A stretch of 64,000 bases of DNA, taken from a virus. Lineage: Duplodnaviria > Caudoviricetes. The translations under genes were made by a program, and so were the position numbers. Below are positions 13,718 to 43,808 of the stretch, piece by piece (positions within the stretch are counted from its first letter, which is position 1; each line of letters starts with the position of its first letter). The notes beneath the pieces are model-generated. The model had not been told where the DNA came from. It saw only the letters and a program-made list of their open reading frames with translations, and did no database searches. The stretch lies in IMG/VR virus record IMGVR_UViG_3300020371_000002, one strand, 5' to 3'.

Positions 13718-13876
13718 TCAACAAGTTATTTTCCAGTTTTGTATACCAAACGACTTTAAATTAACCCATTTGGCATAATGTACACCACGATACGTCAAAA
13801 ATGCGAACGTTTTATCTGGATCGTGTTTGTCTGGATCAAAGGCTGGAAGATCATAATCAAATCTGATCTTCAGCAT
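13718..13876 (-). CDS. Small hypothetical protein with a YRGV motif (52 aa)
   Basis: AGGAGG SD; MLKIRFDYDLPAFDPDKHDPDKTFAFLTYRGVHYAKWV... Confidence 0.7.
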   Translation of the reverse strand: MLKIRFDYDLPAFDPDKHDPDKTFAFLTYRGVHYAKWVNLKSFGIQNWKITC

Positions 13877-13989: not shown

Positions 13990-14157
13990 TCACTTAGTAT
14001 AGGTGCGACCACGATAGCAGTAGGTCCCGTGAGACTCTTTGCTTTCTACACAACGCTGATCATACTCAACACCACGATAGGCAGTGTGAGAAATCTGGGC
14101 ATCATGCAGAGCAGCCTGCTTCTCGATTTGCTTTTTGATTAGAGTAAGTGTGTTCAT
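13990..14157 (-). CDS. DUF4278-like small protein (55 aa)
   Basis: AGGAG SD; MNTLTLIKKQIEKQAALHDAQISHTAYRGVEY...CYRGRTYTK; this family typically follows Downstream-peptide RNAs. Confidence 0.75.
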   Translation of the reverse strand: MNTLTLIKKQIEKQAALHDAQISHTAYRGVEYDQRCVESKESHGTYCYRGRTYTK

Positions 14158-14189
14158 GATTGACTCCTGAAATACTAGGGATTTACGCC

Positions 14190-14378
14190 CCGTTCCTTCA
14201 GTCGTTTGCGTCCCAGTAGTAATTACATTCGGGTACAGATTCCTTTACGGTCTCTACTAGTTCTACCACAATTTCTTTAGGTAGTTCTGATCTGTTTGCA
14301 TTGATTCTGATGATTAATGCATCAGCATCAGCGCACATCATACCAGAGTACAAAAGTAATTCAAACATGGGATGAACG
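14190..14378 (-). ncRNA. Glutamine-II (Downstream-peptide)-type riboswitch, unit 2, with an ORF in the P2 loop
   Basis: 5' half CGUUCAUCCC (14378-14369); 3' half GGGACGCAAACGACUGAAGGAACGG (14214-14190); P1 CGUUC/GGAACG, P2 UCCCA/UGGGA. Confidence 0.7.
14198..14368 (-). CDS. 56 aa protein nested in riboswitch unit 2
   Basis: MFELLLYSGMMCADADALIIRINANRSELPKEIVVELVETVKESVPECNYYWDAND; the C-terminal WDAND* is encoded by the riboswitch 3' half. Confidence 0.7.
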   Translation of the reverse strand: MFELLLYSGMMCADADALIIRINANRSELPKEIVVELVETVKESVPECNYYWDAND

Positions 14379-14380
14379 CT

Positions 14381-14614
14381 CCGTTCCGCGACTTACTTGC
14401 GTCCTATGTAAATGTCCCCTCGCATTGACCTTCTACTTTTGACTTAAGATATCCTATGAGATTCCACTTAGATCGTTGATCTAAGTTGGGATCCATTTGG
14501 ATCTCTACTCGTCGCTGTAAGAACCTTTCACAACTCATGTGCCACCCATAGGGTGACCCGTCATTATGATGGGCTAAGGTCATCGCCAGTAAGAAACTTA
14601 GCATGGGATGAACG
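14381..14614 (-). ncRNA. Glutamine-II (Downstream-peptide)-type riboswitch, unit 1, with an ORF in the P2 loop
   Basis: 5' half CGUUCAUCCC (14614-14605); 3' half GGACGCAAGUAAGUCGCGGAACGG (14404-14381). Confidence 0.7.
14404..14604 (-). CDS. 66 aa protein nested in riboswitch unit 1
   Basis: MLSFLLAMTLAHHNDGSPYGWHMSCERFLQRR...CEGTFT; AUG directly follows CGUUCAUCCC; stop UAG overlaps GGAC. Confidence 0.7.
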   Translation of the reverse strand: MLSFLLAMTLAHHNDGSPYGWHMSCERFLQRRVEIQMDPNLDQRSKWNLIGYLKSKVEGQCEGTFT

Positions 14615-14640
14615 ACAGTCCTACTATAGGACTCATGCCT

Positions 14641-14647
14641 TATTTAG
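14641..14647 (-). promoter_or_regulatory. T4-type late promoter upstream of the riboswitch chain
   Basis: CTAAATA about 27 nt upstream of unit 1. Confidence 0.55.
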
Positions 14648-14706
14648 TCAAGTAAATCATTAAATCGTAACATTAGATACCATTTTGGTATCTCAGCGAT
14701 ACCATT

Positions 14707-15120
14707 TTAGGATTTCTTTAACTTTTTATAGACAAAATTATTGCGGGTCAAGATCATTCCTGCCCGCTTCGTCTCGATATAGTTCGAGAAGTTTGATGTA
14801 TTCTGTTTTTGCCACTCTATAATGCGTGCTTCCTTATAAGGATCATAGAATCCCTGTCGTGTGTACCACGAGCGCCAGTCCTCATGGGACTTGTCTCTAT
14901 TGCACTCAGCACACGCACAAATGAGATTTTTTGTCTCATCAGTCCCCCCGTGAAAACGGGGAACAACGTGGTCTAGAGTAAGATTTTCTCTAGATCCACA
15001 ATACGCACACTTATAGTTGAATGATTCTTTAATCGAGTCTTTCCATATACGTCTAGCTTCTCCTGGGGAACAAGTATGAAGATTATAAAGATAATCTTCG
15101 GGTGAGCTAAAGACTTCCAT
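14707..15120 (-). CDS. HNH endonuclease
   Basis: CAYCG...LTLDHVVPRFHGG...NLICACAECNRDK. Confidence 0.9.
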   Translation of the reverse strand: MEVFSSPEDYLYNLHTCSPGEARRIWKDSIKESFNYKCAYCGSRENLTLDHVVPRFHGGTDETKNLICACAECNRDKSHEDWRSWYTRQGFYDPYKEARIIEWQKQNTSNFSNYIETKRAGMILTRNNFVYKKLKKS

Positions 15121-19357: not shown

Positions 19358-19475
19358 TTTAAATAAGAATAAGTAAGACCATCAGGGAAATGGTGGAGTT
19401 ACTATTCCTCTGCGCCCTAGGCAGAGGTATGAGAGACTGTTCTTTAGACACGCTGTTTAGTCTCGGTCAGGCGTG
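19358..19475 (-). ncRNA. Structured psbA 5' leader (PhotoRC-II-like motif)
   Basis: Hairpins ACACGCCTG/CAGCGTGT, CCTCTGC/GCAGAGG and ACCAT/ATGGT directly upstream of psbA. Confidence 0.55.
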
Positions 19476-19519
19476 TTTACAACCAGTTAAAGAACTTTAC
19501 ATTCCGTAACGTGTTGATG

Positions 19520-43019: not shown

Positions 43020-43031
43020 AAAATCCTTTTG

Positions 43032-43116
43032 CTCGCCACCTTATTTTAGGAATAAGGAAACCCGAGGGGTCGTAAGACCATCCCGACCAGGGCTGTTAGA
43101 GTCCTTCCGTGACTAA
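43032..43116 (-). ncRNA. Structured leader RNA, wcaG-motif-like
   Basis: Stems AGTC/GACT, GGTC/GACC and CCTTATT/AATAAGG, ending in GUGGCG; upstream of the glycosylation cluster. Confidence 0.45.
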
Positions 43117-43808
43117 AATTTCAGGTGTAGATAATTGGTCCCGTAACCATATCTATCAGCGTATTGTTTAGTAGAATGTTTTTCACCAAATTCACCATCT
43201 AACATAAAGTTAAATGCAATACTATATCTTACAGGTCCATCTGATTTTGTGTTAATCGGATTGACCATGTGGCTCAGATGTGAAGGGAAAAGATACAACG
43301 TTCCTTCGTCAGGTGCGAATTGTTTCACACAAGTATTGATGTCAGTAACATCTTCAACGTTTATTTCCCAATCATCTGTGCTCCAAGTGGGTCCACTTCT
43401 GAAGAATTGAATTTCCCCACCCTCATTTGGGTCATTTACACGGGGATAAAATACCCCACTAAACAAAGCATTAGAATGCCAATGCTTAACAGCATAACAC
43501 TGATCCTGATACCTATTACACCAAGAGGTGACACAATGTATCTTATGAATATTTCGGTCGATACTCAATACATTGTATAGGTAGACTTCTACTTCCTTCA
43601 TAATCATGTCTCGGACTTTTTCCATGCCTGGAACATCCAAAACACTTTTAATTTGTGTCACAGATCCATTGGATCTGCCCAACTGATCAACATCCTGTCT
43701 CCATTCAAGTTCTTCTAAGATGTTAACCATCTCAAAGAACTCTTTTGGCCTGAAAGGAAGTTGTGCCTCGTATAGAGGGGTAGGAAATAGTAAATGTAAT
43801 TGCGCCAT
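43113..43808 (-). CDS. Putative Fe(II)/2OG oxygenase (TIGR02466-like)
   Basis: LFPTPL, SWCN, HWHSNALFSGVFY, LFPSHL.H, RYSIAFN. Confidence 0.85.
   Translation of the reverse strand: MAQLHLLFPTPLYEAQLPFRPKEFFEMVNILEELEWRQDVDQLGRSNGSVTQIKSVLDVPGMEKVRDMIMKEVEVYLYNVLSIDRNIHKIHCVTSWCNRYQDQCYAVKHWHSNALFSGVFYPRVNDPNEGGEIQFFRSGPTWSTDDWEINVEDVTDINTCVKQFAPDEGTLYLFPSHLSHMVNPINTKSDGPVRYSIAFNFMLDGEFGEKHSTKQYADRYGYGTNYLHLKF

Follow-up and report, generated by a model that had tools for sequence, protein, structure and literature searches.

Glutamine riboswitches of both classes, glutamine-I (glnA RNA, Rfam family RF01739) and glutamine-II (Downstream-peptide RNA, RF01704), raise the expression of DUF4278/IF17 genes on ammonium upshift, and an alternative strand that masks the ribosome binding site has been proposed for them (PMC6212724, PMC6698751). 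The nucleotides of the glutamine pocket are C1, G2, G18, C39, G40 and the C19:G41 pair (PMC6698751). The glutamine-II class occurs upstream of DUF4278 genes in marine picocyanobacteria as well as in their phages (PMC6212724, PMC6698751), glnA RNAs have already been annotated from Rfam in cyanophages (PMC9964418), and tandem glnA RNAs have been mentioned, a tandem arrangement being expected to give a more switch-like response (PMC2864571). Here we analyzed a stretch of 64,000 nucleotides (nt) of the virus record IMGVR_UViG_3300020371_000002 (Duplodnaviria; Caudoviricetes), hereafter the window, whose minus strand carries at positions 14190-14614 two sets of glutamine-aptamer halves, each of them enclosing a whole small open reading frame (ORF). 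The element is probably one composite glnA-type (glutamine-I) glutamine riboswitch at the 5' end of a small marine cyanophage operon, with its tolerant loops occupied by two small genes, and the nested-gene layout itself is strongly supported by comparative sequence data.

In the proposed structure, the phage element shares with glutamine-I the P1 helix (CGUUC/GAACG), A6, a P2 placed right after CGUUCA, a groove strand that leads into AAGUA, P3, GAAG ahead of the P1 3' strand, and a position upstream of a DUF4278/IF17-like gene. It would differ in having CGCA in place of CGGA, a P2 loop that is a 66-amino-acid (aa) gene, a P3 loop that holds a permuted core plus a 56-aa gene, and a P1 that spans about 420 nt. 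With glutamine-II it has in common the CGUUCA-hairpin-CGCA signature and the location of GGAACGG inside a hairpin, CUGAAG/CUUCAG, with pseudoknot-like topology. In the phage, however, the hairpin around GGAACGG carries the Shine-Dalgarno (SD) sequence, and we read it as the ligand-free state and not as part of the aptamer, because the RNA of the hairpin's 5' strand makes up P3 and the E-loop in the glnA fold, which scores better, and the hairpin's 3' strand is the SD. As in tandem riboswitches (tandem glnA, tandem glycine aptamers), two ligand pockets lie on one leader, but the phage cores would share P3, apparently swap P1 partners, and include one core that is circularly permuted.

Arrangement of the half-sites and the nested genes

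Two half-sites of the form CGUUCAUCCC-AUG and two of the form GACGCA...GGAACGG bracket the 66-aa ORF (ORF1) and the 56-aa ORF (ORF2), and a DUF4278-like gene lies downstream of both half-site pairs and both ORFs (Table 1). In the 5' to 3' direction, the first unit consists of CGTTCA (14614-14609), TCCC, ATG, ORF1 and CATAGGA-CGCAAGTAAGTCGC-GGAACGG, which ends at 14381 and is followed by AG. The second unit continues with CGTTCA (14378-14373), TCCC, ATG, ORF2 and TGGGA-CGCAAACGACTGAAG-GAACGG, which ends at 14190. The RNA between ORF1 and the second CGUUCA thus reads CAUAGGA, CGCAAGUAAGUCGC-GGAACGG, AG. This arrangement had been described in an earlier interpretation made from the letters of the window alone (the sequence-only reading), and it was confirmed by the sequence and by pattern scans of the 64 kb. 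GACGCA-N(4-30)-GGAACGG occurs exactly twice in the window, both times here, with 0.00 copies expected from shuffles, and the two copies of CGTTCAYCC found in the window are both at this element. All the pocket nucleotides are present in both cores, and the P1 strands CGUUC/GAACG, together with the following A and the groove strand, occur twice in the window and are invariant among homologs.

The ends of the genes are part of the aptamer sequence. The UAG of ORF1 belongs to the 3' strand of the closing stem, and the C-terminus of ORF2, W-D-A-N-D-stop, is encoded by UGG-GAC-GCA-AAC-GAC-UGA followed by AG-GAACGG, so that the last five codons and the UGA are the 3' part of the aptamer, just as first reported. 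Because the genes lie inside hairpin loops, folding of the sensor requires pairing between RNA segments that are 200-420 bases apart.

Sequence comparison confirmed ORF1 and ORF2 as real genes under purifying selection. The ratios of nonsynonymous to synonymous substitution rates (dN/dS) were 0.17 for ORF1 and 0.28 for ORF2, codon position 3 was the most variable, and the frame was open in 53/55 and 124/126 loci, respectively. No function is assigned to their families, phrog_6471 and phrog_504, and searches in Pfam and a protein atlas added none for either ORF. When homologs were picked by protein alone, both aptamer halves flanked 79/80 copies of ORF1 and 79/80 copies of ORF2, the single exception in each set being cut by a contig end. 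The half-sites of hundreds of nested loci are nearly invariant, although their ORFs have diverged to 75-85% identity. Moreover, the occupants of the loops vary, with different ORF families, lengths of 65-75 aa and one UUG-start variant. In two loci (L061 and L122), another ORF2 family starts with UUG inside the stem (UCCUUG), and the second groove strand is CGA, not CGC, with the outer-aptamer elements kept. Both nested ORFs had been thought to lack an SD; this holds for ORF1, but GGAG is located 10 nt upstream of the ORF2 AUG.

Relatives with natural loop deletions

The locus sample consisted of 120 metagenomic loci, fetched by the conserved junction, 14 isolate loci and the window itself (135 in total, 134 with upstream sequence). 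At the ORF1 position, 79 of the 134 loci (49 distinct sequences) have a short hairpin and the other 55 an ORF; in phage S-SM1 the position reads CGUUCA-UCCC-UUCG-GGGA-CGCAAGUAAGUCGCGGAACGG. ORF2 is nearly always present; a short hairpin takes its place in locus L105, in one metatranscriptome contig (UUCG) and in another 30 distinct elements, which belong to a sister class. Both ORFs are absent from L105 and from 30 other distinct elements. Since hairpins replace ORF1 and ORF2 in relatives, the ORFs can be regarded as optional occupants of two hairpin loops. In the sister class (L300-L419, S-PM2/P-TIM68-type, with the linker AGCCGACUC), an ORF is nested at position a in 37/124 and at position b in 71/124 elements.

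Such natural deletions were scored with the Rfam models of both classes, whose gathering thresholds are 35 bits (RF01739) and 33 bits (RF01704). L105, which lacks both ORFs, matched RF01739 with 46.4 bits (E=9e-8) in a single alignment that runs from the first CGUUCA to the last GAACG, and in which CGCAAGUA is J2/3, AGU...ACU is P3 with a 41-nt insert, and GAAG is J3/1. Single-aptamer phage relatives (L296 and L295) scored 45.1 and 42.7 bits, respectively; they have identical J2/3-P3-J3/1 letters around a P3 loop of 5 nt, and a DUF4278 gene downstream. P-TIM68 reached 35.4 bits, other ORF-free or partly ORF-free relatives 24.5-34.5 bits, and the S-SM1 unit 28.9 bits with RF01739 and 25.5 bits with RF01704 (E=0.004 each). 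The scores of ORF-free relatives with RF01704 were 21.7-28.8 bits, all under the threshold. The UUCG and short-hairpin versions found in nature thus match Rfam glutamine models, in agreement with the proposal that whole genes occupy the loop after CGUUCA of a glutamine aptamer. The match expected after loop removal was obtained with the glutamine-I model, and a glnA-type composite is preferred over the assignment to the glutamine-II type. A published glnA match in S-CREM1, of 99 nt and 44.0 bits (PMC9964418), is consistent with an ORF-free composite.

The RNA-library contigs X15-X17 and X20, from marine metatranscriptomes of three studies, contain ORF2, the halves and the DUF4278-like gene (window 14190-14410). 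At the conserved half-sites, where the sequences of many phage variants become merged, RNA-library contigs are broken.

Closing stems and folding of the coding RNA

Covariation of the stems beside CGUUCA was analyzed both around the genes and in ORF-free forms. In an alignment of 53 distinct nested ORF1 sequences, the third pair of the P2a stem (columns 9-262) is CG in 27, UA in 18, UG in 4 and unpaired in 4, which supports the proposed UCCCAUG/CAUAGGA pairing with the ORF1 stop codon inside the stem. The AUG of ORF1 pairs with CAU in P2a and, because the stop codon is part of a stem strand, its identity follows the bases before the AUG: UAG, UAA and UGA go with UCCU/UCC-, UCUU and UCUC, respectively. 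In P2b (UCCCA/UGGGA), pair 1 is UA in 114 and CG in 5 sequences, pair 4 is CG in 92, UA in 19 and UG in 5, and pair 5, which involves the A of the ORF2 AUG, is formed in 85%. ORF-free forms show all four Watson-Crick types at P2a pair 7-24 (UA 16, AU 8, CG 4, GC 3), and UA 15, CG 14 and GC 2 at P2b pair 63-78. A covarying P2 hairpin directly after CGUUCA is a feature of RF01739, except that the loop here is a gene and not 4-6 nt. Covariation had been predicted for P1 and P2 alike; the P2 stems covary around variable ORFs, but the P1 strands are invariant. RNAalifold recovered only P1 from the 53-sequence alignment, as a result of register shifts in the alignment.

The coding RNA itself folds back between the ends of the genes. 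P1 was present in the minimum-free-energy fold of 53/53 isolated nested ORF1 units and the base of the P2 stem in 52/53. The median number of long-range pairs between the ends of ORF1 was 24 in native sequences, compared to 10 when the codons of the interior were shuffled, and the stem base was formed in 48% of the shuffled sequences. In the extended ORF1 rod, 81% of cells pair, and 111 double-change cells were counted versus 63+-6.5 in shuffles; in one example, GACC/GGUC is exchanged for CACC/GGUG with two amino acids altered. The native ORF2 sequences likewise show long-range closure in excess over codon-shuffled controls. These coding RNAs appear to have evolved 5'-3' complementarity, in the form of rods that bring the half-sites together.

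Shared P3 and probable swap of P1 partners

The linkers of the window, AGUCG (14393-14389) and CGACU (14204-14200), are mutually complementary. In 31 distinct ORF-free elements, the corresponding P3 pair in trans (41-88) is UA in 16 and AU in 13, with 0 unpaired, whereas pairing within the unit at the same linker positions is broken in 13/29 sequences. Over 341 distinct elements the linker pair is U:A in 83 and A:U in 23. Linkers differ in the sister class (S-PM2, P-TIM68 and many contigs), where they covary between units. The linkers are flanked by AAGUA and GAAG (AAGUA-AGUCG ... CGACU-GAAG), as P3 is in RF01739, and these halves of the E-loop are split, the first stem alone being followed by AAGUA and the last GAACG alone being preceded by GAAG. 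De novo prediction with RNAalifold on the 31 ORF-free elements gave a swapped arrangement: the partner of the first CGUUC was the last GAACG, and the two middle strands, GAACG and CGUUC, formed a hairpin with each other. This hairpin (inner P1') was also found in the minimum-free-energy fold of the window RNA.

As the linkers pair as a shared P3, the first CGUUC most likely pairs with the last GAACG, leaving the middle halves as a circularly permuted second core. This swap of P1 partners is suggested by the trans P3 and the logic of nesting, together with the ORF-free relatives. In the outer part, P1, P2a (with ORF1 in its loop) and P3 would meet in a canonical three-way junction of the glnA type. 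P3 would lead at its other end to a second junction, in which the elements follow one another in the same cyclic order, P1 is closed by the AG linker and P2b contains ORF2. Both start codons and the ORF1 stop would fall within the closing stems, and the ORF2 stop at the boundary between P3 and the E-loop.

A chain of independent units had been proposed for this locus, that is, two tandem glutamine-II-type aptamers, each pairing its own CGUUC/GGAACG around its own ORF and regulating the following gene. Every pocket nucleotide is indeed present in each unit, compact single units score 21.7-35.4 bits with RF01739 and RF01704, isolated units form their own P1 in minimum-free-energy folds, and CUGAAG/CUUCAG around GGAACGG has the topology of the glutamine-II P2. 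Tandem glnA RNAs are also known (PMC2864571), and the co-transcriptional order favors such an arrangement. Nevertheless, it appears unlikely to us, since the linkers covary with each other and not within units, each unit has one half of the E-loop only (AAGUA in the first, GAAG in the second), the spanning alignment scores 46.4 bits versus 22-35 for single units, RNAalifold chooses the swapped P1 pairs, and the variants with CGA as second groove strand keep everything that the outer aptamer needs. A degenerate third 5' half (CGUAAAUCCC), also part of that chain, turned out to belong to a variable hairpin, of which it is the loop and the 3' strand; the sequence of this hairpin in homologs is unrelated. 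Finally, the first unit's 3' half plus the second unit's 5' half was considered as the sole functional, permuted aptamer and was ruled out, because covariation links the stem beside the first CGUUCA to that before the first GACGCA.

Proposed expression platform and mechanism

The strand ACGACUGAAG, which comprises the P3 3' strand, J3/1 and the first G of GGAACGG and includes the UGA of ORF2, shows complementarity to CUUCAGGAGU. The latter motif, whose end is 5-8 nt upstream of the AUG of the DUF4278-like gene, is present in 159/163 distinct sequences. The helix between the two strands (H3) forms in the minimum-free-energy fold of a 477-nt RNA. The second base of the ORF2 stop covaries with its partner in H3, the two being G-C in 91, G-U in 43, A-U in 25 and A-C in 0 sequences, and a UAA stop always comes with CUUUAG (25/25 distinct). 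Since H3 and the aptamer fold use the same strand, they are mutually exclusive. The start of the DUF4278-like gene, AUGAAC (14152-14157), is complementary to the GUUCAU of the 5' half-sites (14608-14613), a pairing that is present in the same 477-nt fold and through which the start codon would be hidden as well when no ligand is bound. Homologs of the gene mostly begin with AUGAACAC, and coding constraint is an alternative reason for this complementarity.

These features suggest a glutamine ON switch for the DUF4278-like gene, with ligand binding and regulation predicted from the sequence. Without glutamine, ACGACUGAAG would pair with CUUCAGGAGU, hiding the SD of the DUF4278 (IF17-like) gene. 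Glutamine would stabilize P1, P3 and the E-loop, and the withdrawal of the ACGACUGAAG strand would turn the gene on, in the manner of the glutamine riboswitches already known. The aptamer lies in the 5' leader of a DUF4278-like gene, a location typical of RF01739, and this 55-aa ORF is presumed to be the regulated gene.

Several points weigh against the composite structure. The P1 strands are invariant duplicates, so that the assignment of their partners is inferred and not demonstrated by covariation; a kissing arrangement that keeps the P1 pairs within each unit and adds the trans P3 is possible, and the co-transcriptional order would favor pairing of the first CGUUC with the first GAACG. 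In 25/159 distinct sequences, those with a UAA stop, the E-loop half GAAG reads AAAG, with loss of its conserved G. A tree-aware independent-pairs test on the ORF1 stem was underpowered, with 3 independent pairs and p about 0.5. Relative to the minimum-free-energy fold, forcing P1 in the 477-nt RNA costs 2.4 kcal/mol for the first unit's own pairing and 8.1 kcal/mol for the swapped outer one, and the cost rises to 9-10 kcal/mol when the second unit's own P1 is added; this energy gap of the aptamer state would need to be covered by ligand and tertiary contacts. The 55-aa ORF matches Pfam DUF4278 with E=0.0022 and 18.8 bits, under the 25.3-bit cut-off, and its S-SSM5 homolog is annotated in RefSeq as a DUF4278 protein. 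In addition, a search of the window against Rfam, at the gathering threshold and at E<=10, gave no glutamine family at this element, and the record nearest to the window had no match to RF01704. The failure to match RF01739 is explained by inserts that exceed the span of the model, and family membership consequently rests on homology to the ORF-free relatives.

The missing Rfam match and an aptamer state 8-10 kcal/mol above the minimum-free-energy fold are also what a relic would show, in which the aptamer is dead in nested forms and the half-sites are kept as initiation regions, coupling signals or RNase sites. We regard such a scenario as highly improbable, as the halves are nearly invariant in nested loci with diverging ORFs and have exactly the letters found in ORF-free relatives that score above the threshold of the family model, the closing stems covary, and the coding RNA has an excess of long-range pairing.

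In the composite structure, the aptamer folded around ORF1 and ORF2 would mean no translation of these genes on that RNA molecule and, from the geometry, ribosomes on either of them would have to unfold the sensor. Long-distance RNA pairing masks the start site of the maturation gene in phage MS2, and the mgtA riboswitch leader contains a leader ORF, mgtL. In common with these systems, the start would be sequestered by a distant segment and translated mainly on nascent or unfolded RNA, translation and folding being mutually exclusive. In contrast to the phage element, however, the ORFs in those systems are not in an aptamer hairpin loop, and leader peptides are short sensors and not conserved proteins of 56-66 aa. 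A ribosome terminating at the ORF2 stop would open the SD-masking helix, resulting in translational coupling. A two-way nitrogen switch can thus be put forward, although only tentatively: glutamine would close the 420-nt two-pocket aptamer, with the IF17-like gene on and initiation on the nested genes off, and translation of the nested genes would erase the sensor, their termination in the SD-masking helix overriding it.

Alternatively, the switch might serve the DUF4278 gene only, with ORF1 and ORF2 as accessory or mobile passengers of insertion-tolerant loops that glutamine does not regulate, and with rods and codon-stem overlaps selected solely because the sensor has to remain foldable. Group I and group II introns carry homing endonuclease or maturase ORFs in peripheral loops, polymorphic for presence or absence, and the intron fold closes around the ORF. 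The phage element resembles them in having a whole ORF in a peripheral loop of a structured RNA, but introns are ribozymes and not ligand sensors, and the start and stop codons of the phage genes belong to the stems of the sensor itself. The presence of both ORFs is polymorphic among close relatives, the same loops hold different ORF families and lengths (65-75 aa; UUG start), and the rods exceed codon-shuffled controls, as such passengers would; furthermore, the stems beside CGUUCA form without ligand in known aptamers (PMC6698751). On the other hand, there is an exact fit between ORFs and loops, the AUG being 4-7 nt away from the junction and the stop codon within the aptamer, so that ligand-dependent stacking on P1 should affect initiation, and the ORF2 stop lies in the SD-masking helix, in mechanical coupling to the downstream gene. 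This explanation, which we consider possible but doubtful, concerns the meaning of the nesting only and is compatible with the proposed structure.

Promoter, operon and genome context

The window is from a T4-like cyanomyophage with transfer RNA (tRNA) genes and PhotoRC-II and wcaG RNAs. The PhotoRC-II (19394-19489, minus strand, 56.4 bits) and wcaG (43025-43117, minus strand, 43.1 bits) RNAs score above the Rfam gathering thresholds, and five tRNA genes lie at 44.6-49.1 kb. The locus is the counterpart of syn9 gp196-gp198 and is matched by 415 cyanophage records.

A sigma-70-type promoter precedes the element (Table 1), and an equivalent one ends 6-10 nt before CGUUCA in 109/125 distinct homologs. 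The late promoter CTAAATA and the adjacent hairpin of the sequence-only reading were reinterpreted: CTAAATA lies in the spacer of the sigma-70-type promoter, and the "hairpin" is an inverted repeat, AGTCCTATAGTAGGACT, across the -10 box (14617-14634, minus strand). CTAAATA may still provide a second, late-type start besides the sigma-70-type promoter. The arms of the repeat vary in step between phages (GGTC/GACC, TGGTA/TACCA, GTGC/GCAC). Phages S-IOM18 and Syn19 have a late-type promoter, TATAAATA, instead, and a different hairpin directly before CGUUCA, for which reason the -10-box repeat may be a 5' hairpin of the RNA in late transcripts. Of 125 distinct homologous upstream regions, 87 have a GTA-N8-TAC box. 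It starts in most cases 52-61 nt upstream of CGUUCA, which suggests an input of the host regulator NtcA (2-oxoglutarate) on the operon.

With this promoter before and a terminator after, the operon would consist of ORF1, ORF2, the DUF4278-like gene, a 35-aa ORF and a 52-aa YRG-motif ORF, the last of which has no Pfam match at E<=0.1. An HNH endonuclease gene (Pfam HNH, E=7e-11) is located directly upstream of the operon (14707-15120, minus strand). The upstream neighbor varies among homologous phages and can be a ribonucleotide reductase (RNR) subunit, SpeD, JmjC or PetE.

Table 1. Features of the proposed composite element and its operon (positions in the window).
Feature	Position	Strand	Remarks
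GTA-N8-TAC box (NtcA-type consensus), perfect	14667-14680	-	just upstream of the -35 element
Sigma-70-type promoter TTGACT-17-TATAGT	14623-14651	-	10/12 matches; ends 8 nt before the first CGUUCA
Outer P1 5' strand CGUUC + A (first 5' half)	14609-14614	-	invariant in all homologs
P2a 5' strand UCCC-AUG, including the ORF1 start codon	14602-14608	-	pairs with CAUAGGA 14408-14402; covariation
ORF1, 66 aa (phrog_6471, syn9 gp196 family)	14404-14604	-	in the P2a loop; RNA predicted to fold as a long rod
P2a 3' strand CAUAGGA, contains the ORF1 UAG	14402-14408	-	sequence and covariation of columns 9-262
J2/3 CGCAAGUA: groove strand CGC + 5' half of the E-loop	14394-14401	-	aligns to RF01739 consensus CGGAAGUA in ORF-free relatives
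P3 5' strand AGUCG	14389-14393	-	complementary to CGACU 14204-14200; homologous linker pair covaries
Inner core GGAACGG, AG, CGUUCA; inner P1' hairpin GAACG/CGUUC	14373-14387	-	RNAalifold consensus of ORF-free relatives
P2b 5' strand UCCCA, including the A of the ORF2 AUG	14368-14372	-	pair counts, covariation
ORF2, 56 aa (phrog_504, syn9 gp197 family), ends WDAND*	14198-14368	-	in the P2b loop
P2b 3' strand UGGGA	14211-14215	-	sequence, pair counts
Inner-core groove strand CGC + AAA	14205-14210	-	sequence; CGA in few variants (L061, L122)
P3 3' strand CGACU; last base is the U of the ORF2 UGA	14200-14204	-	RF01739 alignment, linker covariation
J3/1 GAAG, 3' half of the E-loop	14196-14199	-	aligns to RF01739 consensus GAAG
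Outer P1 3' strand GAACG + G	14190-14195	-	pattern scan, RF01739 alignment, RNAalifold
Variable hairpin GGGG-CGUAAAU-CCCU	14177-14191	-	overlaps the last Gs of GGAACGG; predicted fold; sequence not conserved
3' strand of alternative helix H3, UUUCAGGAGU, carries the DUF4278-like SD	14163-14172	-	pairs with ACGACUGAAG 14205-14196
55-aa DUF4278-like ORF (syn9 gp198 family, phrog_545)	13990-14157	-	starts 33 nt after the second GGAACGG
35-aa hydrophobic ORF	13993-13886	-	between the DUF4278-like gene and the 52-aa ORF
52-aa ORF with LTYRGVHY motif, DUF4278-like by eye	13718-13876	-	last gene of the operon
Terminator-like hairpin + T run	13694-13668	-	closes the operon

Implications

In the literature covered, from which Ames and Breaker (2011) was missing, only glnA annotations were found for cyanophages, and genes nested in an aptamer, a shared P3 or a permuted core were not found described; the nested layout does not seem to have been reported before. 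If the two-way switch were true, the element would be without precedent among natural riboswitches in two respects, the protein genes inside its aptamer and the circularly permuted double aptamer with a shared helix. Riboswitch aptamers are treated as compact, contiguous domains of the 5' untranslated region, and family models detect only that form. The phage element indicates that an aptamer can be split by whole genes and yet be maintained by selection, and that coding sequence can be shaped into an aptamer helix. Because the genes split the aptamer, a widespread element, pieces of which are present in about 420 GenBank cyanophage records and in hundreds of metagenomic contigs, has gone unannotated. 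The natural series of elements with no, one or two ORFs offers a ready test of translation versus ligand sensing on one mRNA. Finally, the finding would link the control of host nitrogen metabolism by the phage to intracellular glutamine, through a conserved NtcA-type box and IF17-like proteins, which may inhibit glutamine synthetase.

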